From Thermoanaerobaculia bacterium (GTDB lineage: Bacteria; Acidobacteriota; Thermoanaerobaculia; Multivoradales; Multivoraceae), in contig OY761158.1 in the NCBI GenBank assembly GCA_963664405.1, positions 6,592,001 to 6,656,000 on the forward strand: a stretch of DNA of 64,000 nucleotides, in the 5' to 3' direction. This document shows positions 1,158-22,101 of the stretch, piece by piece (position 1 is the stretch's first letter; each line of letters starts with the position of its first letter). Below the pieces are notes generated by a model. That model did not search any database and was not told the DNA's origin. It saw nothing but the letters and a program-made list of their open reading frames with translations. The position numbers and the translations under genes were made by a program.

Positions 1158-2549
1158 GTGAAGAGGGCGACCCTAGGGGCACTCGGCGCTGCCGGGCTGC
1201 TGCTTGCCCTCCCAGTTCCCTCGTCGGCCCAAGACTCGGATGGGTCGACGCTGGGTGACGAGGCGGTCGAGATTCTGCAGAATTATCTCCGGGTGGATAC
1301 CATCAACCCGCCGGGTAACGAGATGCGTGCGGTCGAGTTCTTCGCCGCTCTTCTCGAGCGTGAAGGAATCGCCTACGAAAGCGCGGAGTCGGAGCCTGGC
1401 CGAGGCAATATCTGGGCCCGTATCGCGGGCGGCGATGAGCCAGGGCTGGTGCTTCTCCACCACTCCGACGTGGTGCCTGCGGATGAGGAGCACTGGTCGC
1501 TGGACCCGCTCTCAGGAGAGATCGTCGACGGGTTCCTTCACGGCCGAGGCGCCCTGGACACCAAGAGTCTGGGGGTCCAACACTTTCTCGCCTTTGTCGC
1601 ACTCCATCGAGCCGGAGTGAAGCCGCGTCGAGATGTCATCTTCATGGCCACGGCCGACGAGGAGGCTGGAGGCTTCGCAGGGGCTGGATGGATGGTCGAG
1701 AACAGACCTGAGGTCTTTCGCGATGTCGGCTTCCTGCTCAATGAAGGGGGCCGAGGCTTGGTTCAGGACGGAGGTGTCTCGTTCAGTGTGGAGATCACGC
1801 AGAAGGTTCCTCTTTGGCTCGAGTTGACCGCGGAGGGTCAGGCGGGGCACGGCTCGATACCCCCCGTCGAGTCGGCCGTAAATCGACTGGTGCGAGCGCT
1901 GGGTCGGCTGCAGACGGCCAAGTTCGAGCCTCGCGTCGTTCCGGCAGTAGATACCTTTTTCAGGGCGATGGCTCCCCAGGCCGGGGAGGAGTGGCGCCCT
2001 CATTACGAGAATATTGCCGAGGCCGTCGCGGATCCAGATATTCTTCTCCGCCTCCAGCTCGAGAACCGATACCTCGCTGCCATTGTGAGAAACACCTGCT
2101 CCCTGACCATGCTGACGGGTAGCACCAAGATCAACGTAGTGCCGCCAACGGCCTCAGCTCAGCTGGATTGCCGACTCTTGCCTGACCAGGACCTCGATTC
2201 CTTCGTCGAAGAGCTCACGGCTATTCTCAACGAGCCGGCGATCTCGATCCGGCGGATCATGGGTTTTACGCCGGCAGTGTCGAGTACTGATACCGAGCTC
2301 TACCGAGAGATCGAGACTTTAGTCGGGCGGCATTTCCCTGGCGCTCCGGTGATCCCCACGGTCGCCGCGGGCTTTACCGACAGCCACTTCTTTCGCGATC
2401 TCGGAATCACGAGCTACGGCTTCGGTACCCTGGTTCTAAGCTCTGAGGAGTCCAGCGGGGTGCACGGTAACGACGAGCGGGTGCCCGTCGAGCAGCTGAG
2501 GAGGGGCACCCTGCTGATGGCTGAGCTCGTTCTTCGCTTCGTCGAGTAG
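1158..2549 (+). CDS. M20/M25/M40 family metallopeptidase (secreted)
   Basis: Signal peptide; HSDVVP, GRGALDTK, ADEEAGG, LNEGG, GHGS, GFTDSHFFR and HGNDER motifs. Confidence 0.92.
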   Translation: MKRATLGALGAAGLLLALPVPSSAQDSDGSTLGDEAVEILQNYLRVDTINPPGNEMRAVEFFAALLEREGIAYESAESEPGRGNIWARIAGGDEPGLVLLHHSDVVPADEEHWSLDPLSGEIVDGFLHGRGALDTKSLGVQHFLAFVALHRAGVKPRRDVIFMATADEEAGGFAGAGWMVENRPEVFRDVGFLLNEGGRGLVQDGGVSFSVEITQKVPLWLELTAEGQAGHGSIPPVESAVNRLVRALGRLQTAKFEPRVVPAVDTFFRAMAPQAGEEWRPHYENIAEAVADPDILLRLQLENRYLAAIVRNTCSLTMLTGSTKINVVPPTASAQLDCRLLPDQDLDSFVEELTAILNEPAISIRRIMGFTPAVSSTDTELYREIETLVGRHFPGAPVIPTVAAGFTDSHFFRDLGITSYGFGTLVLSSEESSGVHGNDERVPVEQLRRGTLLMAELVLRFVE

Positions 2550-2572
2550 CTCTCTCGTTGGAGCTGGTTGGC

Positions 2573-3334
2573 CTAATCGTGTCGCCGGAGAAGATAGTAG
2601 AGGTTGAGGCGATTCTCGCGGCCATCCCCGGAGAAGACCTCGAGCACTGAATAGGGAAGGCCGACGATGAGCCGCTCAGCCTCCGCGGGGTCGACGTGAT
2701 GACAGTAGCGAGCTGGAAGGGAGGTAGAGCTCTCTTCGCCCCAAGGCAGTAGGAAGTCCCCCTTCTCGAGATCTTTGGGGTCTATCGGCCCGCTGAGGAG
2801 GGTGTCCGCCTTAGACCAGGGCAGAGCGCGTCGCTGGAAGCGGGCTTCGGCTCCAAATTGCCAGTGGGACAGGGCCAGCAATCCGCCTGGAACGAGGCAA
2901 CGAGTGACCTCGTCGATGAGCTCTCGGCGGCGTGAGAAGGAGGGTATGTGATGCAGGAAACCGAGAGCGACCGCTAGATCTACGCTCGCAGATGAGAGAG
3001 GGATCGACGAATCCGGCAGACTGAGATCGACTGCCAGAAAATCTCCGGGAGCCCGGCGGGCCGCCTCGCTGAGGAGGGGGAGGCTTTGGTCGAGCCCGAT
3101 ATAGGAGTGCGGAGGGCTCAGGGTGGTGCCTGCGAGGCGGCCGAATCGGCCGTTGCCGCAGCCGAGGTCTAGAATACGCACCGGAAGCAGCCTGTGCCGA
3201 TGAGAACTGACAAGCTCGAGGAGCCGAGCCCACCCCCTCCAGGCCCCTTTGCGGGTGGAGGAGAAGGCTGCGGCATGAGATCTATAGAAGTGTTGGTTGA
3301 TACGGTTCAGTGCCGCGATCGTTCGCCGGTGCAT
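2573..3334 (-). CDS. Class I SAM-dependent methyltransferase, Trm9/ALKBH8-like
   Basis: ATG at 3334 with GGAG RBS; motifs FY..HAAAFSSTR..W, ILDLGCGNGR, FLHHIPS..RR, LVPGG, DFLLPW and RYCH. Confidence 0.8.
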   Translation of the reverse strand: MHRRTIAALNRINQHFYRSHAAAFSSTRKGAWRGWARLLELVSSHRHRLLPVRILDLGCGNGRFGRLAGTTLSPPHSYIGLDQSLPLLSEAARRAPGDFLAVDLSLPDSSIPLSSASVDLAVALGFLHHIPSFSRRRELIDEVTRCLVPGGLLALSHWQFGAEARFQRRALPWSKADTLLSGPIDPKDLEKGDFLLPWGEESSTSLPARYCHHVDPAEAERLIVGLPYSVLEVFSGDGRENRLNLYYLLRRHD

Positions 3335-3376
3335 CGCCGTTGCTCCAAACCAGGCCTTTGCCGGCCCCGAGGCTAA

Positions 3377-5149
3377 GTGCGCGAGCGCAGCTACTCTTTT
3401 TCTCCCGCTCGCTACCAGGCGGAGCTTAGCGCGATCATCCAGGAGTGCATGGCGGTTGGCGCGCTCGACGACGCGGCGCTGCAGCGCATCCTCCGGAAGT
3501 ACCCCAAGGACGGCCGGGGTTTCTTCTCCAAGAGCGAGATCATTCGCGGCTATCGTCATTTACAGAGCTCTGGCGGCGCGATCGATTTGGGCGAGGAGAG
3601 CGAGTTTGTCCGGCGGATGCGGATGAAGCCGGTGCGCACCGCCAGCGGCGTGGCGCCGGTCACGGTTCTCACTCAGCCTTTTCCGTGCCCCGGAGAGTGT
3701 GTCTTCTGTCCCAGCGACGTGCGGATGCCGAAGAGCTATCTGTCTAGCGAGCCCGGGGCTCAGCGCGCCGCACAACATCGCTTCGACCCCTATGCGCAAA
3801 CGGCTTCGCGGCTCACCACTCTTTACAATATCGGGCATTCGGTCGACAAAGTAGAGCTCATCGTTTTGGGCGGGACTTGGTCTTCTTACCCCCAGGGGTA
3901 TCGGGTTTGGTTCATCAAGCGCTGTTTTGATGCGCTCAACGACTTCGACTCCGTCCCGACCTCGCCAACCCCGCGGCTCAAGAGTGCTTTTGCCTTCGAA
4001 GGAGTAGAGGATCGAGTCGACGGCGCTGATCTCGTAGAGCGATACAACGAAGTCGTTCAGCGGGTATTTCGTGAGGATCCGGCCGCTCGCCCGGTGGGGC
4101 GGGCGGCATGGCTCGAGCTGAGCGCCGCGCAGCTACGCAACGAGACGAGCCCTGTGCGCTGTGTCGGGCTCTCTCTCGAGACCCGCCCGGATCACCTCAC
4201 TCGGGAGGAGGTCCTGGAAATGCGGCGCTTGGGAGCGACCAAGGTTCAGCTCGGTTACCAGAGTCTCGACGACGAGGTTCTGCGTCGGAATAGGCGGGGT
4301 CACGATGTCGCTGCGACTCGGAAGGCGATGACGGTGCTGAGGTCTGCCGGGTTCAAGATCCACGCCCACTGGATGCCCAACCTCCTCGGGTCCTCGCCCG
4401 ATCGGGATGTTGAAGACTTCGAGCGAATCTTCAGCGACGAGGCGCTGCGGCCGGATGAGCTCAAGATCTATCCCTGTAGCTTGGTGGAGAGCGCCGAGCT
4501 CATGAGCCACTATAGGGACGGGTCGTGGCGGCCCTACACAAAAGAAGAATTGGGCTGGGTCTTGGAAGAGTGCATGCTCCGCACACCACCCTGGTGTCGA
4601 TTGACGCGGGTGATTCGAGACATTCCGTCGACGGAGATCGTAACCGGGAACAAGCTGACCAATTTTCGTGAGATCGCGCAGGCTGGGCTACGCCGGCGCG
4701 GAGAGCGGGTTCGCGATATCCGGAGCAGGGAAGTGGGTGGGGACGAAGTGCGTCGCGAGGATCTACACCTCGAGGCGTTGGAGTATCGAAGCTCCGAGGG
4801 TCGAGAGATTTTTCTCCAGTATGTTGATCAGAGCGATCGTCTCGCGGCCTTTTTGCGGCTCTCGCTTCCGGAGCAGCGGCCGAGCATCGACGAGCTGCGA
4901 CAGAGCGCGATGATTCGCGAGGTGCACGTATACGGCACGCTGGTCGCTCTCGGCGAGCGATCGTCGGGGGCGGCGCAGCATCTTGGCCTGGGTCGGAGCT
5001 TGATCGAAGAGGGCTGTAGGCGCGGGGTCGAAGCGGGATTCGCCGACCTTGCGGTCATCTCTTCAGTCGGCACCCGGAACTACTATCGAGGACTGGGGTT
5101 CTTGGACGGCGAGCTCTATCAACATCGCGAACTGAGCTCGTCGGGATGA
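3377..5149 (+). CDS. elp3: Elp3 tRNA uridine(34) carboxymethyltransferase (radical SAM + KAT/GNAT)
   Basis: KPVRTASGVAPV, CPGECVFCP, PKSY, DKVELIVLGGTW, ETRPD, HWMPNL, LKIYP, RVIRDIP, IREVHVYG, QHLGLG and VISSVGTRNYY, all characteristic of Elp3. Confidence 0.93.
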   Translation: MRERSYSFSPARYQAELSAIIQECMAVGALDDAALQRILRKYPKDGRGFFSKSEIIRGYRHLQSSGGAIDLGEESEFVRRMRMKPVRTASGVAPVTVLTQPFPCPGECVFCPSDVRMPKSYLSSEPGAQRAAQHRFDPYAQTASRLTTLYNIGHSVDKVELIVLGGTWSSYPQGYRVWFIKRCFDALNDFDSVPTSPTPRLKSAFAFEGVEDRVDGADLVERYNEVVQRVFREDPAARPVGRAAWLELSAAQLRNETSPVRCVGLSLETRPDHLTREEVLEMRRLGATKVQLGYQSLDDEVLRRNRRGHDVAATRKAMTVLRSAGFKIHAHWMPNLLGSSPDRDVEDFERIFSDEALRPDELKIYPCSLVESAELMSHYRDGSWRPYTKEELGWVLEECMLRTPPWCRLTRVIRDIPSTEIVTGNKLTNFREIAQAGLRRRGERVRDIRSREVGGDEVRREDLHLEALEYRSSEGREIFLQYVDQSDRLAAFLRLSLPEQRPSIDELRQSAMIREVHVYGTLVALGERSSGAAQHLGLGRSLIEEGCRRGVEAGFADLAVISSVGTRNYYRGLGFLDGELYQHRELSSSG

Positions 5150-6591
5150 GCTCGCTCGGCGCGTTGTACCGCCCCTCAGCGGCGTTGGTTACTGACCTCT
5201 ACCAGTTGACCATGGCCTACGGTTATTGGCGTCATGGCATGGCGGAAAAGGAGGGCGTGTTTCACCTCTCCTTTCGTAGCAATCCCTTTGGAGGCGGCTA
5301 TACGGTGGCGGCGGGCCAGGGCCTCGTTGCAGGGCTGCTCGAGGACTTTCGTTTCGACCCGGAGGATCTGGCCTACCTGGCAACGCTCTCGGGTTCCGAT
5401 GGCGAGCTGCTCTTCCCTGGGCCGTTCTTGGCGCTGCTCAGGGACCTGGAGCTCGAGTGTGAGGTGCTCGCCGTGGAGGAGGGGCGGACTGTCTTCCCGG
5501 GCGAGCCCCTGCTCAGGGTTCAGGGTCCTCTCCTTCAGGGGCAGCTTCTGGAGACTCTTCTCCTCAATGTCGTTTCCTTCCAGTCGCTGATCGCGACCAA
5601 GGCGTCGCGAATCTGCTCTGCGGCCGGAGAGGACCCGGTCCTGGAGTTCGGCCTGCGACGAGCCCAGGGCACCGGCGGGGCCGTCGAAGGGGCACGAGCC
5701 GCGTACATCGGTGGTTGTGCCGCGACTTCGAATCTGGCGGCCGGTAGGCTGTGGGGCATCCCTGTTAGCGGGACCCACGCTCACAGCTGGGTCCTTGCAT
5801 TCGAAGACGAGGAAGCGGCGCTACAGGCGTATTCAGAGGCTCTTCCCGGGAATGCGACCCTCTTGGTCGATACCTACGACACCAAGCAGGGGGTGGAGAT
5901 TGCGGTGAGAGTCGCCTCCTCGCTTCGTCGGGCCGGGCACGAGCTCAACGGCGTACGTCTCGACTCCGGGGACCTGGTCGCGCTGAGCCGCTACGCGCGG
6001 GATGTTCTCGACCGCGAGGGGTTCGCGGAGGCGCGAGTGGTCGCGAGCGGCGACCTCGACGAGCACGAGATCGTCCGGTTGAAGGAGGCTGGAGCCTCTA
6101 TCGACATCTGGGGGGTCGGTACCCGTCTAGCGACCGCCTGGGGTCAGCCTGCGATGGAGGCTGTCTATAAGCTGTTGGCAGTTCGGGGCGGCGACGGAGA
6201 ATGGAGTTACCGGGCGAAGCGCTCGGAGGAAGCGGCGAAGTCTTCGACTCCGGGGATCTTGCAAACTGCACGTTTTCGTAAGGACGGACGAATGGTGGCG
6301 GATGTCGTCCTCAACGAGGAAGACGGCGTCGAGGTCACGACGACGAGTGTTGTCTGGCCACAGCGGTCTCGGCTCGAGTTGTCGGAGGAGCGACCAGAGC
6401 TGATGCTGAAGCCGCTTTTCGGCGAGGGGCGTCCGAGCATAGAGAGCCCGGACCTCGAGGAGCTTCGAGGGCGAGTGCGCGAGGAGATAGGCGCCCTACC
6501 TGAAGAGGTTCGCGGGCTGCGCCCGGAGGCCCGGTATCCTGTCGGGGTCACTGAGAGCCTGCACCGGCTGCGACAGCGGCTATTGGACTAG
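5146..6591 (+). CDS. pncB: Nicotinate phosphoribosyltransferase
   Basis: TDLYQLTM, EFGLRRAQG, SGTHAHSW, LVDTYD, RLDSGDL and WGVGT; ATGA overlap with elp3. Confidence 0.95.
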   Translation: MSSLGALYRPSAALVTDLYQLTMAYGYWRHGMAEKEGVFHLSFRSNPFGGGYTVAAGQGLVAGLLEDFRFDPEDLAYLATLSGSDGELLFPGPFLALLRDLELECEVLAVEEGRTVFPGEPLLRVQGPLLQGQLLETLLLNVVSFQSLIATKASRICSAAGEDPVLEFGLRRAQGTGGAVEGARAAYIGGCAATSNLAAGRLWGIPVSGTHAHSWVLAFEDEEAALQAYSEALPGNATLLVDTYDTKQGVEIAVRVASSLRRAGHELNGVRLDSGDLVALSRYARDVLDREGFAEARVVASGDLDEHEIVRLKEAGASIDIWGVGTRLATAWGQPAMEAVYKLLAVRGGDGEWSYRAKRSEEAAKSSTPGILQTARFRKDGRMVADVVLNEEDGVEVTTTSVVWPQRSRLELSEERPELMLKPLFGEGRPSIESPDLEELRGRVREEIGALPEEVRGLRPEARYPVGVTESLHRLRQRLLD

Positions 6592-6831
6592 ACCAGCGTT
6601 TCCAAAGTTCGCGCACATATCTCGGGCCCTTCTGCCCGCTGGCGTCGTTTCGCCTCCTCGACATATTGCCCAATATGCCTGCGTCAGCGCGCCTCGCCCC
6701 GGAAAACGGACCTACGGCCCGTTCTCCGGCCCATCCCCGCCTGAGAACTACTCGCCTGCTTCGCAGGCTCCTAGCCAGCGAACAGAATGACCTCAAGCTA
6801 TGCAGCACGAACTCTGGAAACGCTGGTCTAG
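6588..6831. mobile_element. MITE copy 2 (TIR type B: CTAGACCAGCGTTTCCA...TGGAAACGCTGGTCTAG) with a 78-bp extra insert
   Basis: 17-bp perfect TIR including CTAG; near-identical to 21743-21908 and 38786-38952 except for the insert at 6693-6770. Confidence 0.9.
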
Positions 6832-7706
6832 GAGGCCACAAGGTCTCTCATTGCCTCCGCTACGTCGGTGAAGGCGAAGCGGTAGCCGAGCTCTTGCGCC
6901 CGGCGCGGGAGCACGCTCTGGCCGGTGAGGAGCACCTCTGCGACCTCGCCGAGGGCGAGCCTGAGGGCGATCGCTGGAACCTTGAAGAGAGTGGGTCGGT
7001 GGAGGGCCGAGCCGAGACTATTGGCGAGCTCGGTCATAGTTACCGGATTGGGTGCAGTTAGATTGAAAGTACCTTCGGCAGCCTCCGACTCGAGAAGGAA
7101 GCTCAGGAGATGAGCCGCGTCGTCGATGTGGATCCACGAGACCCACTGACGGCCGGAGCCGAGAGCGCCGCCAAGGCCGAGTCTGAATGGTGGCAGCATG
7201 CGCTGAAGCGCGCCGCCTCCTCGGCCGAGGATGACTCCGATTCGGGCCGAGAGCGTGCGTACCCCTGCTTCTCGAGCGGGCCCGGCGGCGGACTCCCAGT
7301 CGGCGCATAGCCGGGCCAGAAAGTCGTCTCCCGGCGGGGAGCTCTCGTCCAGGCCGAGTCGTGTGCTAGGGCCGTAGAAGCCGACCGCTGACGCGCAAAC
7401 AAAGACGGAGGGTCGATGTTCAGCGACCAGGGCGGCCAGTCTCCTCGTGGTCTCGAGTCGGCTCGAGATCAGGATCTCCTTCTGCTTGGCTGTCCAGCGG
7501 CGGGAAAAGAGGTTCTCTCCAGCTAGGTGAACTACCGCGTCAGCCGCCTCTACGCCGGCCTCCAGGCTCTCGTCGGACCAGTCGTATCCTTCGCTGGATC
7601 GCTGGCGGCTCACGCACAGTGGCTCATGGCCTCTCTCGGCGAGGTGTTGCTGAAGTCGGGTCCCGAGAAAGCCTGAAGCTCCTGTTACCAAGACCTTCAT
7701 TTTCAT
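6828..7706 (-). CDS. TIGR01777 family NAD-dependent epimerase/oxidoreductase (YfcH-like)
   Basis: VTGASGFLG, HLAGE, SAVGFYG, GSGRQWVSWIHIDD and C-terminal DUF1731-like VLPRRAQELGYRF. Confidence 0.92.
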   Translation of the reverse strand: MKMKVLVTGASGFLGTRLQQHLAERGHEPLCVSRQRSSEGYDWSDESLEAGVEAADAVVHLAGENLFSRRWTAKQKEILISSRLETTRRLAALVAEHRPSVFVCASAVGFYGPSTRLGLDESSPPGDDFLARLCADWESAAGPAREAGVRTLSARIGVILGRGGGALQRMLPPFRLGLGGALGSGRQWVSWIHIDDAAHLLSFLLESEAAEGTFNLTAPNPVTMTELANSLGSALHRPTLFKVPAIALRLALGEVAEVLLTGQSVLPRRAQELGYRFAFTDVAEAMRDLVAS

Positions 7707-19100: not shown

Positions 19101-20525
19101 ATGAGCCATCGAGCCTCGACGCAACAACGCTGGGCGCAGTTTCGCTTCAGTGTGGTGGGTGAGCTGTTGGCTGCGCCTCCCGCACCGGGACATCTGCAGG
19201 TGGAATTGTCTCGACTCTCCCAGAAGGCCTGGCGCCATCCGATCACGGAGAAGGCGGTGTACTTTGCCCGCTCGACGATTGAGCGTTGGTACTACACGGC
19301 CCTGGCCGGTCGCGATCCGATCGGGGCGCTACAACGCCGATCGAGAAGCGACAGCGGCCAAGCGCGCGCCATCCCAACCCGGATCGCCGAGCTGATCCAC
19401 ACGCAATACAAGGCCCACCCGACGTGGAGCTACCAGCTCCATTGGGACAATCTGGACGTGGTGCTAAAAGAGCGACCGGAGCCAGGGAAGGTGCCTTCCT
19501 ACTCCACCCTGCGCCGCTTCATGATCGCGCACGGTTGGCCCAAACAACGACGCACGAAGGGAAAGGATCGCAGCACTGCCTCCGGTGCCCCTGCGCGCGA
19601 GAAGCGCAGCTACGAAGCCGAGTACGTCAACGGGCTCTGGCACCTCGACTTCCACCACGGCTCGCGCAAGATCCCGAGCTCCGCAGGGACCTGGGAAGTA
19701 CCGATGCTGCTGGCGATTCTCGACGATCACTCCCGGCTCACCTGCCATCTGCAGTGGTATCTGCACGAGACCGCCGAGTGTCTGATCCACGCTCTGATCC
19801 AAGCCTTCATCAAACGCGGACTGTGCCGCTCACTGCTCACCGATAACGGCAGCGCCATGATCGCCGACGAGACCACCGAGGGGCTCCTACGCCTCTCCGT
19901 CGTCCATCGCACCACATTGCCCCGGAGCCCCTATCAAAACGGGAAACAAGAAAACTTCTTTTCTCAAGTCGAATCCCGCCTCCTCGCCATGCTCGAAGGA
20001 CACGCGGATCTCAATCTGGCATTGCTCAATGAGGCGACGCTGGCTTGGGTGGAGATGGAGTATCACCGCACCGTCCATTCCGAGACCGGCCAGACGCCGC
20101 TCGACCGCTTTCTCGAGGGTCCCTCCGTCTCTCGGATCTGCCCCAGCCTGGACGAGCTGCGCTTCGCCTTCACCGCCGCTCGAAAGCGCACCCAGCGCCA
20201 AAGCGACGGCACCATCAGCCTCGACGGCACCCGTTTCGAGATCCCCTCTCGTTTCCATCATCTCAACCGGATCTCGGTGCGATACCAGAGCTGGGAGAAA
20301 AGCTCCGTCTTCATGGTCGACGAAAGCTCCGACGTCCCACTCGAGCGCCTCTACCCCCTCGACAAGGCAAGAAACGCTTCCGGCATCCGCCGCCCGATCC
20401 AACCCCAGAGCACCGACGAGCCGACAGGCCCGGAGCCTGGCATCGCACCCCTACTCCGCAAACACATGGCGGAGTACGCCGCCACCGGGCTCCCGCCCGC
20501 CTACCTCAAAAAGGAGACACCGTGA
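19101..20525 (+). CDS. DDE-type integrase/transposase (rve core + Mu-transposase C-terminal domain)
   Basis: N-terminal HTHs (STIERWYY, PSYSTLRRF); WHLDFHH, ILDDHSR, LTDNGSAM, NGKQENFF; C-terminal DGTISLDGTRFEIP. Confidence 0.92.
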   Translation: MSHRASTQQRWAQFRFSVVGELLAAPPAPGHLQVELSRLSQKAWRHPITEKAVYFARSTIERWYYTALAGRDPIGALQRRSRSDSGQARAIPTRIAELIHTQYKAHPTWSYQLHWDNLDVVLKERPEPGKVPSYSTLRRFMIAHGWPKQRRTKGKDRSTASGAPAREKRSYEAEYVNGLWHLDFHHGSRKIPSSAGTWEVPMLLAILDDHSRLTCHLQWYLHETAECLIHALIQAFIKRGLCRSLLTDNGSAMIADETTEGLLRLSVVHRTTLPRSPYQNGKQENFFSQVESRLLAMLEGHADLNLALLNEATLAWVEMEYHRTVHSETGQTPLDRFLEGPSVSRICPSLDELRFAFTAARKRTQRQSDGTISLDGTRFEIPSRFHHLNRISVRYQSWEKSSVFMVDESSDVPLERLYPLDKARNASGIRRPIQPQSTDEPTGPEPGIAPLLRKHMAEYAATGLPPAYLKKETP

Positions 20526-21364
20526 ACAACCAGAAACTACTGGCACTCTTCGGACTTAAGTGGAACCCCTTTACCCCCAACATCCCCGTCGAAGCGCTGT
20601 GGCGACACCCGCATCTCGACCACTTCTGCTGGCGCCTGGAGACCCTCGTCCACGACGGTGGCTTCGCATTGATCTCCGGTGATCCCGGCACCGGCAAGTC
20701 GGTCGCTCTACGCACCCTCGCTCACCACCTTCAACACCTGCCCGACCTGCGCACCGGAGTCCTCACGCGGCCACAGAGCAGTCTCGCCGACTTTTACCGT
20801 GAGCTCGGACAGCTCTTCGGGGTCCCGCTCAATCCACACAACCGATGGGCCGGATTCAAAGCCCTCCGACAGACCTGGCTCTCCCATGTCGATGCCACCC
20901 ATCAAAGACCCGTACTCTTGATCGACGAAGCCCAGGAGCTCGCCGCCAACGTGCTGGCCGAACTGCGCATCCTCGCCTCTGCGGACTTCGACTCACGCTC
21001 CATCCTCACCGTCGTCCTGTGCGGCGACTCCCGACTCACACAGCTCTTCCGACGAGACGATTTCCTACCCGTCGCCAGCCGCATCCGCGTACGCCTCCTC
21101 CTCGACTACCTGCCCCCAGAGACGTTGGCCGAATGGCTCCAGCACTCCCTGACACAAGCCGGAAACCCCAGTCTCCTCGACCACGAGGTCATCACCACTC
21201 TCGCCGAGCACGCCGCCGGAAACCTCAGAGTACTCGCACACATGGCCAACGAGCTCCTCGCCATGGCCGCCAAAGAAGAGCTACCCAACATCGATCAGAA
21301 GCTCTACCTCGAGGTCTTCTCGCCACCTACCTCCCAGCGCTCTCCCAGGAAAGCCCGTGCCTGA
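20522..21364 (+). CDS. ExeA-like AAA+ ATPase, transposition helper (TnsC/TniB/MuB analogue)
   Basis: GTG start overlapping the transposase stop; FGLKWNPF, Walker A GDPGTGKS, Walker B LLIDEAQ, SRI and GNLR. Confidence 0.9.
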   Translation: MNNQKLLALFGLKWNPFTPNIPVEALWRHPHLDHFCWRLETLVHDGGFALISGDPGTGKSVALRTLAHHLQHLPDLRTGVLTRPQSSLADFYRELGQLFGVPLNPHNRWAGFKALRQTWLSHVDATHQRPVLLIDEAQELAANVLAELRILASADFDSRSILTVVLCGDSRLTQLFRRDDFLPVASRIRVRLLLDYLPPETLAEWLQHSLTQAGNPSLLDHEVITTLAEHAAGNLRVLAHMANELLAMAAKEELPNIDQKLYLEVFSPPTSQRSPRKARA

Positions 21365-21704
21365 CTCCCCATCCGCCCAGCAACAACGACGGCACCTCCA
21401 GAGCGTCCTCGAGCTCTATCGACGACATCCCCAAACCACCGGACGAGTCAGAAACGCCGATCGCCGCCTCGCCGTACATCTCTATCGAAACGGCGTTACC
21501 CTCGACACCATCAACGCTGCCTTACTACTCGTCGCCGCCAGGAGATGCAACGAGGCACACACCACAACCCCCATCCAGAGTCTCCACTACTTCCTCCCCG
21601 TCATCCGAGAGATTCGCGATAGACCCCTCGATAACGGCTACCTCCGGTACCTTGAAACTCTCATCCGCGACAGCAGCCAAGACCCAGACCATCATTTACT
21701 GTGA
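21357..21704 (+). CDS. Small transposon accessory protein of unknown function
   Basis: Overlaps the ATPase stop; helical basic protein (VLELYRRHPQTTGRVRNADRRLA...IQSLHYFLPVIREI); its stop lies inside the right-end repeat. Confidence 0.7.
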   Translation: MPDSPSAQQQRRHLQSVLELYRRHPQTTGRVRNADRRLAVHLYRNGVTLDTINAALLLVAARRCNEAHTTTPIQSLHYFLPVIREIRDRPLDNGYLRYLETLIRDSSQDPDHHLL

Positions 21705-21737
21705 TCAGCCCGCCATCGATTACCGTGATCACTCTCA
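21691..21737 (-). repeat. Right end: terminal IR and two putative transposase-binding repeats
   Basis: atcatttactgtgatca (21691-21707) and atcgattaccgtgatca (21715-21731), followed by ctctca. Confidence 0.75.
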
Positions 21738-21742
21738 AGGAC

Positions 21743-21908
21743 CTAGACCAGCGTTTCCAGAGTTCGCGCACATATCTCGGCCCCTTCTGTCCGCTGACGG
21801 CGTTTCGCCTCCTCGACATATTGCCCAATATGCCTGCGTCGGCGCGCCTGGCCAGCGAACAGAATGACCTCGAGCTATTGCACACGAGCTTTGGAAGCGC
21901 TGGTCTAG
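21743..21908. mobile_element. MITE copy 3 (TIR type B)
   Basis: CTAGACCAGCGTTTCCA...TGGAAGCGCTGGTCTAG with the conserved core; begins immediately after the transposon TSD. Confidence 0.9.
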
Positions 21909-22101
21909 TTCTTCGCGTTCTCGATCGTGGTCGCGGCGGGTCTTGCGGCTGTAGCGGCTGAAGCCGACAGCAGGCCAGCTCCTCGAAAGCTGGGCTCTTG
22001 TTGATCATGACCCTGCCCTATAGTCTATCGAGCCGGGGGGAATGCTGTGGACCGCTCGGTTGTGAGTGAGGTCCCTTATTCGAAAGAGAAGGAGTCAGAA
22101 A

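Follow-up and report, generated by a model that had tools for sequence, protein, structure and literature searches.

The window analysed here is a stretch of 64,000 nucleotides from a Thermoanaerobaculia bacterium (assembly GCA_963664405.1, contig OY761158.1, positions 6,592,001-6,656,000 of the forward strand), and all locus coordinates given below are positions within it. Two divergently oriented genes at 2573-5149 encode a stand-alone Elp3, which combines radical S-adenosylmethionine (SAM) and lysine acetyltransferase (KAT/GNAT) domains, and a class I SAM-dependent methyltransferase that resembles Trm9. An initial annotation of the DNA had proposed that the pair forms a bacterial, Elongator-free pathway to 5-methoxycarbonylmethyluridine (mcm5U) or its 2-thiolated form (mcm5s2U) at the tRNA wobble uridine (U34), possibly without the help of Trm112. 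Conservation is given by two profiles of the methyltransferase family, A1 (27 relatives) and A3 (46 sequences from several phyla).

3377-5149, plus strand: stand-alone long-form Elp3 (radical SAM plus KAT/GNAT), 590 amino acids (aa); open reading frame (ORF), TIGR01211 and PDB matches
3686-3709, plus strand: radical SAM cluster motif CPGECVFC (aa 104-111; Cys104, Cys108, Cys111); sequence
4709-4738, plus strand: VRDIRSREVG (aa 445-454), without cysteines, equivalent to the archaeal CxCxxC segment; alignment to structure 6iad
4976-5086, plus strand: KAT motifs QHLGLG (aa 534-539) and SSVGTRNYY (aa 562-570); sequence
3335-3376, no strand: divergent intergenic gap of 42 bp, between the GTG start of Elp3 and the ATG start of the methyltransferase
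2573-3334, minus strand, stop codon included: Trm9-like class I SAM methyltransferase, 253 aa (P0001); ORF, relatives and family profile
3251-3265, minus strand: FSSTR motif; Arg28 is invariant in A1 and is aligned with R40 of Yarrowia Trm9 (yeast R29)
3149-3169, minus strand: SAM-binding motif I, DLGCGNG; D56, G58, C59, G60 and G62 are invariant in A1 and A3
2939-2956, minus strand: LHHIPS; His128/His129 are invariant in A1 and A3 and align to Yarrowia H126/H127, which are yeast H115/H116
2696-2758, minus strand: DFLLPW through RYCHH; Trp198 corresponds to yeast W168, Arg209 to yeast R241 and Cys211 to yeast Y243

The Elp3 ORF (590 codons) begins with a GTG at 3377, ends with a stop codon at 5147-5149 and matches the NCBIfam Elp3 model TIGR01211 at 484.9 bits, against a curated cut-off of 350 bits, over model positions 47-518 of 522; it is the only match above the cut-off in the whole genome. 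Searches against solved archaeal, bacterial and eukaryotic Elp3 structures gave E values of 1e-84 to 1e-98, with 6iad and 5l7j at about 1e-98. The radical SAM and KAT motifs on which the initial annotation had based its call of a full-length Elp3 are all present, and CPGECVFC, QHLGLG and SSVGTRNYY are all kept when 47 Elp3-like ORFs of related loci are aligned (one or two of the rows are spurious). Position 3377 is the earliest start codon possible downstream of the preceding stop, and the long N-terminus is taken to be real because tblastn matches at other loci begin at query residues 1-8. Compared with the Elp3 of Methanocaldococcus infernus, the protein has about 72 additional N-terminal residues and an insert near residues 192-248. 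The observation that VRDIRSREVG lacks cysteines where other Elp3s carry a CxCxxC site also holds: the segment aligns with the stretch in which archaeal Elp3 (6iad) bears three cysteines. Only a minority of the 47 aligned ORFs retain the full triplet, and we treat the Cys-free segment as a lineage trait because the triplet is missing from most of the aligned neighbouring bacterial Elp3 sequences; on this alignment it would be accessory rather than defining, and its loss no ground for excluding the protein from the family. We infer that the window Elp3 acts as a synthase of 5-carboxymethyluridine at U34 (cm5U34).

The methyltransferase starts at the ATG at 3334, as in the 253-aa protein on record (P0001). 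The stop-to-stop frame on the minus strand is longer (2573-3559, 328 codons), and the corresponding 328-aa reading was rejected: 29 close relatives from a collection of 5.8 billion proteins are all about 250 residues long and cover only the last 76-77% of that frame, and a 328-aa product would overlap the conserved N-terminus of Elp3. The 42-bp gap has ribosome-binding-site-like sequences on both sides, as first described, each of them a pattern match only: GGAG at 3343-3346 (minus strand), 8 nt ahead of the methyltransferase ATG, and GAGG at 3369-3372 (plus strand), 4 nt ahead of the Elp3 GTG. A scan of 2400-5400 found no sigma-70-like promoter.

The initial annotation had likened the methyltransferase to Trm9 and ALKBH8 by its motifs, and all of these (FSSTR, DLGCGNG, LHHIPS, DFLLPW and RYCH) are present. 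When profile A1 was searched against PDB sequences, the first match was Trm9 of Yarrowia lipolytica (5cm2_Z) with 52.6 bits and an E value of 3.2e-13, followed by a match of 46.4 bits. The alignment to Trm9 covers profile positions 26-233, and the other matches are mostly restricted to the Rossmann core at about 48-161. Under profile A3, Trm9 reached 53.8 bits in one stretch, the best single domain and the third-best whole-sequence score. Trm9 thereby appears, by a modest margin in these profile comparisons, to be the closest characterised relative of the family among solved proteins.

We then mapped yeast mutagenesis data (Létoquart et al. 2015, PMC4678810, Table 2) through the A1-5cm2_Z alignment, in which the chain index plus 35 gives Yarrowia numbering (verified on H126/H127). 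In the available part of that source, eight residues are essential in yeast Trm9: R29, D72, H116, W145, W168, R241, Y243 and N271. For six of the eight, the aligned column is invariant, or conserved to 90% or more, in A1 and A3:

yeast R29: R28, invariant or at least 90% conserved
yeast D72: D82, invariant or at least 90% conserved
yeast H115/H116: H128/H129, invariant
yeast W145: W158, invariant or at least 90% conserved
yeast W168: W198, invariant or at least 90% conserved
yeast R241: R209, invariant
yeast Y243: C211, a cysteine, nearly invariant in A1
yeast N271: possibly N244, outside the aligned part of 5cm2_Z and paired by reading of the alignment only

Within A1 itself, W198 and R209 are invariant and C211 nearly so, and an invariant N244 comes after an invariant D237 with about six extra residues in between; N244 is the likely counterpart of N271. 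The JGI label 'tRNA (uracil-5-)-methyltransferase TRM9' is carried by 5 of the 120 relatives listed, and NCBI calls them class I SAM-dependent methyltransferases. The family counts 2,278 representatives at an E value of 1e-30 or better among 1.84 billion sequences, a figure that possibly includes some true archaeal or eukaryotic Trm9. One relative from a metagenome contig (P0005, 527 aa) carries, C-terminal to its Trm9-like domain, an RNA 2'-O-methyltransferase domain of the SpoU/TrmH type that fits no subfamily clearly; it was the only fusion found in a search for longer forms, which is weak evidence that others are absent.

To place the pair in a wider genomic context, we examined relatives of the methyltransferase in a scan with one genome per species, which gave 378 confirmed relatives; 80 loci were retained. 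Their record titles name Acidobacteriota (including Thermoanaerobaculia), Myxococcota, Chloroflexota, Patescibacteria groups, a Spirochaetaceae metagenome-assembled genome (MAG), a Pleurocapsa MAG and small MAGs labelled Pseudomonadales. Flanks of 6 kb or less were fetched and Elp3 neighbours counted by tblastn. Elp3 lies within this distance of the methyltransferase in 51 of the 80 loci, drawn from Acidobacteriota, Myxococcota, Chloroflexota, Patescibacteria and other MAGs, with the divergent, upstream placement seen in the window in 50 of these. The estimated head-to-head gap is at most 300 bp in 32 loci, 300-1500 bp in 14 and larger in 4. Of the 29 loci with no Elp3 nearby, 5 had less than 300 bp of upstream flank, and searches of the 29 whole genomes found Elp3 above the cut-off in 25 and a further copy cut by a contig end, so that 77 of the 80 methyltransferase-carrying genomes have an Elp3. 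ORF clustering put Elp3 in 64 loci, a number inflated by shadow ORFs, and the tblastn count of 51 was used instead. The same clustering, over 81 loci, found no third conserved gene: the next clusters, each in at most 12 loci, were shadow ORFs antisense to Elp3, an ABC ATPase, a DUF427 protein and a short-chain dehydrogenase that is lineage-specific. In seven loci (L005, L010, L013, L014, L017, L018 and L020) a short-chain dehydrogenase gene, confirmed by Pfam adh_short in three, lies between Elp3 and the methyltransferase on the methyltransferase strand, and accounts for gaps of about 1 kb.

The two genes also track each other within phyla. Among 301 sampled Acidobacteriota genomes (including G049, G150 and G024, flagged as unpublished and all Elp3-negative), Elp3 exceeds the cut-off in 10: all 6 of the window's family, 3 others of its order and 1 elsewhere. 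In a subset of 28, made up of these 10 and, from the same order or class, 18 genomes without Elp3, the methyltransferase profile scores 249-319 bits in exactly the 10 Elp3-positive genomes, where it lies within about 4 kb of Elp3, and at most 54 bits in the others. Of 301 sampled Chloroflexota genomes 59 have Elp3; when these and 20 Elp3-negative genomes were searched further, the methyltransferase was found in 34 of the 59 and in none of the 20. In all 34 the Elp3 is longer (open frames of 530-787 aa). The remaining 25 are small genomes of 0.9-2.4 Mb, 24 of which have a short Elp3 (open frames of about 450-520 aa, 546-588 bits); the 25th has a 389-aa open frame scoring 489.8 bits. By size and score, the short Chloroflexota Elp3 is probably of the Dehalococcoides kind. 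Given these counts across loci and genomes, the pairing of Elp3 with the methyltransferase is a conserved module, far beyond chance.

The usual bacterial enzymes for the 5-substituent of U34 (xm5U34), MnmE and MnmG, are both missing from the window's own genome, a single contig that is 97% complete. The best scores there were as follows:

MnmE: 99.8 bits, GTPase domain only, against a cut-off of 252.6; absent
MnmG: 37 bits against a cut-off of 524.85; absent
MnmA: 320.7 bits against a cut-off of 236.95; present
Trm112-like: 29.9 bits against a cut-off of 22; present, one copy

The same holds wherever the module was found, in searches that returned MnmG in 9 of 10 bacterial model genomes used as a control, and in some rows of which first-look candidates were scored only in part:

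28 Acidobacteriota genomes: MnmG in 0 of 10 Elp3-positive and in 13 of 18 Elp3-negative (one split over contig ends)
79 Chloroflexota genomes: MnmG in 0 of 59 Elp3-positive and in 13 of 20 Elp3-negative
50 of the 80 methyltransferase-bearing genomes, several phyla: MnmG in 0 of 50

The 13 genomes with MnmG among the 28 Acidobacteriota are also those with MnmE, and both Chloroflexota groups, with short and with long Elp3, lack MnmG. In every set searched the Elp3 module and MnmEG are mutually exclusive. Five near-complete genomes of the window's order or class (G005, G258, G267, G222 and G249) had none of MnmE, MnmG and Elp3.

ARAGORN found 48 tRNA genes in the window's genome, 12 of them with U34, including Lys-UUU, Glu-UUC, Gln-UUG, Arg-UCU, Gly-UCC and Sec-UCA. 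The first five of these are of the kind that bears xm5U or its 2-thiolated form, xm5s2U, in other organisms. The ARAGORN list of this genome has no tRNA-Leu with anticodon UAA or CAA. It does contain a 'tRNA-Pyl(cta)' at C1:3207503-3207584, with a mismatched acceptor stem, weak arms and 78% G+C, which is probably a false call.

Eukaryotic Trm9 works with Trm112, and the initial annotation had seen no Trm112 in the window and suggested that the bacterial enzyme might do without it. The first part stands: there is no Trm112-like gene within the 64 kb. The suggested independence finds no support in this organism, whose sole Trm112-like gene lies far outside the window, at C1:4082605-4082856 (84 aa; match at C1:4082614-4082796). 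A complex of the methyltransferase (alignment A1) with this protein (alignment A2, 13 rows) was modelled with an interaction score (ipSAE, the interaction prediction score from aligned errors) of 0.84 in all three runs, the best of three controls scoring 0.00; contacts agree to at least 94% between runs, and the predicted local distance difference test score (pLDDT) of the partner is at least 87. Of 80 solved complexes, 58 attained the mark applied to such models, as did 2 of 110 mismatched pairs; these counts are only rough with custom alignments. The modelled contacts join methyltransferase residues 97-103 and 108-114 to Trm112 residues 10-15 and 64-73, the same strand-pairing mode as is described for Trm9 strand beta-3 in the available part of PMC4678810. 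The model supports binding of the Trm112-like protein to the methyltransferase; as similar complexes have been solved, its score may reflect mere likeness to them.

Co-occurrence is uninformative on this point in the Acidobacteriota, where Trm112-like genes are found in all 28 genomes with or without Elp3. A Trm112 match was found in 7 of 7 larger methyltransferase-bearing genomes; among 12 small ones of the Patescibacteria type (0.6-1.5 Mb) only one had Trm112 above the cut-off and one a weak match, in a search with a model of only 40 positions and in small MAGs that are possibly incomplete. Independence from Trm112 is possible in these small genomes. The Trm112-like proteins of the window's order (L084:1492-1743 in A2) have lost most of the zinc-knuckle cysteines of relatives in the same class (CPKTK...CAES versus CPLCK...CVKC) and carry a 27-residue insert that is missing in the G011 copy; five of the six come from Elp3-bearing genomes.

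We consider it probable that the two genes form an Elongator-free module for mcm5(s2)U34 that replaces MnmE/MnmG, as the initial annotation had proposed and as the computational checks support. In the proposed pathway, the stand-alone Elp3 would use SAM and acetyl-CoA to place a carboxymethyl group on C5 of U34 in tRNAs of split codon boxes, giving cm5U, which the Trm9-family methyltransferase would then methyl-esterify to mcm5U. In this organism the methyltransferase probably acts bound to the single Trm112-like protein of the genome. MnmA would add the 2-thio group on the Lys, Glu and Gln tRNAs, giving mcm5s2U, and the module as a whole would substitute for the missing MnmE/MnmG.

A broader claim, to which we give slightly better than even chances, is that a wobble pathway of the eukaryotic and archaeal type, self-contained and widespread in bacteria (Acidobacteriota, Myxococcota, Chloroflexota and Patescibacteria among them), takes the place of MnmEG, with long-form Elp3 and a Trm9-family methyl esterase feeding into MnmA, mcm5U and mcm5s2U as products, Trm112 as a partner of the methyltransferase, and a short Elp3 that functions in genomes lacking the methyltransferase. 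If so, mcm5U and mcm5s2U, which bacteria have been considered to lack, occur in these groups; the methyltransferase is the first identified client of a bacterial Trm112; and the short, Dehalococcoides-like Elp3 stops at cm5U or takes another route.

Several observations weigh against reading the pair as an mcm5U module. Pfam recognises the methyltransferase only as generic Methyltransf_11/12/25, and its NCBIfam matches are all sub-threshold. With the single sequence as query, phmmer against PDB sequences places Yarrowia Trm9 only 12th (E 1.3e-3); the margin of Trm9 over generic methyltransferases in the profile searches is 5-7 bits, and A3 ranks two plant two-domain methyltransferases above it by whole-sequence score (best domain 36.1 bits). 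An AlphaFold2 model of the methyltransferase (pLDDT 91.2) has class I methyltransferases as all of its top fold matches: Foldseek ranks 5cm2_Z 11th in the PDB (E 9.6e-12, template modelling score by target 0.75, the solved Trm9 chain being truncated), and when the Foldseek top 1000 were realigned with VIA-align, the best 50 matches listed had Z scores of 18.5-21.1, led by METTL6 (Z 21.1, root-mean-square deviation 3.2, 220 residues aligned), with 5cm2 not among these 50. Judged on this predicted structure, fold searches do not single out Trm9 and return a flat field of class I methyltransferases; an ESM Atlas search likewise returned only generically named bacterial clusters. At the residue level, the essential Y243 of yeast is matched by a cysteine, which could signify an altered substrate or mechanism, and N271 lies beyond the aligned stretch. 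Three methyltransferase-bearing MAGs, G309 (1.2 Mb), G310 (5.5 Mb) and G329 (6.9 Mb), yielded no Elp3, and the 25 Elp3-positive Chloroflexota genomes without a methyltransferase show that Elp3 does not require it. Most genomes in the counts are MAGs, and related genomes are non-independent samples. For none of these organisms did the searched literature give measurements of nucleosides or enzyme activity.

Some of these points fit a different reaction, in which the methyltransferase is tied to Elp3 and acts on tRNA in a way unlike Trm9, so that the end product is not mcm5U; its target might be a different side chain made by Elp3, the 2-thiolated form alone, or some other atom in the anticodon loop. 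Near-invariance of the Tyr-to-Cys exchange across the family, the six or so extra residues between D237 and N244, the modest profile similarity and the Chloroflexota genomes with Elp3 alone would all accord with it. We nevertheless regard it as unlikely: six of the eight essential Trm9 residues are retained, including the Arg/His pair proposed (in the available part of PMC4678810) to position the cm5U carboxylate, and Trm9 is the best characterised single-domain match. Wobble-uridine carboxyl methylation of the same kind is also performed by CmoM (8joz), which esterifies uridine 5-oxyacetic acid (cmo5U) to its methyl ester (mcmo5U), a substrate unrelated to the Elp3 product. CmoM has a VIA-align Z of 19.1, and the window's genome has a CmoA-like carboxy-SAM synthase gene (C1:2977052-2977774, 231 bits against a cut-off of 193.3). 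However, 8joz_A scores 32.9 bits under A1, some 20 bits below the 52.6 of Trm9, no CmoB was found in the genome (best 33.7 bits against a cut-off of 275), and a CmoM-like role would leave the tight co-occurrence and adjacency with Elp3 unexplained, which makes it extremely improbable.

That the enzyme methylates a small molecule or a protein, and stands beside Elp3 by a conserved accident of gene order, seems to us very unlikely. Its Pfam and NCBIfam names are generic or sub-threshold small-molecule ones (BioC, UbiE, the DVU_1556 family), and many natural-product methyltransferases are among its top fold matches; yet the adjacency and co-occurrence persist in at least five phyla whose loci otherwise share little gene order (no third cluster in more than 12 of 81 loci), presence and absence follow Elp3 exactly in the 28 Acidobacteriota genomes, and in one relative the enzyme is joined to an RNA methyltransferase domain. 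Scarcely any weight is given to the last alternative, an Elp3 that is not a tRNA enzyme at all, for example a protein acetyltransferase, in a pair unconnected with the wobble uridine. Elp3 was first described as a histone acetyltransferase, and this one has lost the zinc-segment triplet and has additional N-terminal and internal stretches, but acetyl-CoA hydrolysis by bacterial and archaeal Elp3 is triggered only by tRNA (as stated in the available part of PMC6367351), and MnmE/MnmG are missing where Elp3 is present, as expected if Elp3 supplies xm5U34.

Around the pair, a nicotinate phosphoribosyltransferase-like gene (Pfam NAPRTase_N, NAPRTase_C and NAPRTase) lies at 5146-6591 on the plus strand; its ATG overlaps the Elp3 stop by four bases (ATGA), which suggests co-transcription with Elp3. 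The corresponding ORF cluster is found near the module in 8 of the 81 loci, the window included. Further out are an M20 peptidase gene (1158-2549, plus strand) and a gene for an NAD-dependent epimerase with DUF1731 (6828-7706, minus strand), neither of which recurs next to the module in the 81-locus clustering. At 20001-22000, GC skew in 2-kb bins falls to -0.248, whereas nearly every other bin of the window lies between +0.02 and +0.15.

Comparison with the eukaryotic systems, Trm9-Trm112 and ALKBH8-TRMT112, shows the same arrangement of a class I SAM methyltransferase of similar size working beside an Elp3, and the counterparts of yeast R29, D72, H115/H116, W145, W168 and R241 are conserved in the bacterial family. 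The differences are that this family has Cys in place of Tyr243, that the bacterial methyltransferase lacks the AlkB and RNA-recognition-motif domains of ALKBH8, that 2-thiolation here would be carried out by MnmA rather than Ncs6/Ctu1, and that Trm112 exceeds the cut-off in only 1 of the 12 small Patescibacteria-type genomes. Bacterial Elp3 presumably acts without Elp1, Elp2 and Elp4-6, going by the available part of PMC6367351, no search for these subunits having been made. A further parallel is found in the archaea Haloferax volcanii and Sulfolobus solfataricus, where a stand-alone Elp3 occurs with a Trm9-type methyltransferase; in S. solfataricus the two genes are clustered, as described in the available parts of PMC2584109 and PMC6144793. 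Unlike the archaeal pair, the one described here resides in bacteria of several phyla and is mutually exclusive with MnmEG in the searched sets.

Among bacterial enzymes, the Elp3 of Dehalococcoides mccartyi (DmcElp3, 5l7j) is likewise stand-alone and matches the window protein at an E value of 3.4e-98, and genomes with the short kind of Elp3 also lack MnmG. DmcElp3 has 459 aa and no extended N-terminus (according to the available part of PMC6367351) versus 590 aa here, with about 72 residues ahead of the first aligned position and an insert at about 192-248. It was called 'a rare example' in the same part of PMC6367351; PMC13315578 (2026) describes Elp3 as conserved in 'numerous bacteria'. 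MnmE/MnmG, which make 5-carboxymethylaminomethyl- or 5-aminomethyluridine (cmnm5U/nm5U34), act at the same position on the same split-box tRNAs and are also combined with MnmA (PMC7663514). In contrast to the radical SAM and acetyl-CoA chemistry of Elp3, they are a GTPase and a FAD/folate enzyme, unrelated in both protein and chemistry, and they were not found in the searched sets wherever the Elp3 module was found.

The standard view in textbooks and reviews, so far as their available parts state it, is that xm5U34 is cmnm5 or 5-methylaminomethyl (mnm5), made by MnmEG, in bacteria and mcm5 or 5-carbamoylmethyl (ncm5), made by Elongator and Trm9, in eukaryotes. In its available part, a 2017 review (PMC5372719) places archaeal Trm9 orthologues only in Sulfolobales and Halobacteriales and reports none in bacteria; it also finds no bacterial gene like the eukaryotic Trm112-dependent methyltransferases and says that the function of bacterial Trm112 is not known. 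The available part of PMC4615748 states that bacteria lack two of the tRNA modifications that yeast makes with two-subunit enzymes. A bacterial Trm9, a bacterial Elp3-Trm9 pair and bacterial mcm5U had no description in the searched literature, with supplements outside the search, and the phrases 'bacterial Trm9' and 'prokaryotic Trm9' did not occur in it. The counts presented here suggest otherwise, pointing to a discrete family that is tied to Elp3 and excludes MnmEG.

We therefore interpret the window pair as a bacterial member of the known Elp3-then-Trm9 pathway, with mcm5U or mcm5s2U as the presumed product. It has traits of its own, namely the cysteine in place of Tyr243, a long-form Elp3 without the zinc-site triplet, MnmA as the likely thiolase and the exclusion of MnmEG, and both here and in many other bacteria it appears to do the work of the missing standard enzymes. 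Should the chemistry be borne out, thousands of genes now called 'class I SAM-dependent methyltransferase' would call for re-annotation, bacterial Trm112 would gain a client, and small, soluble, Elongator-free enzyme pairs would become available for mechanistic work. The pair would also bear on how wobble decoding systems have been exchanged among the domains of life.

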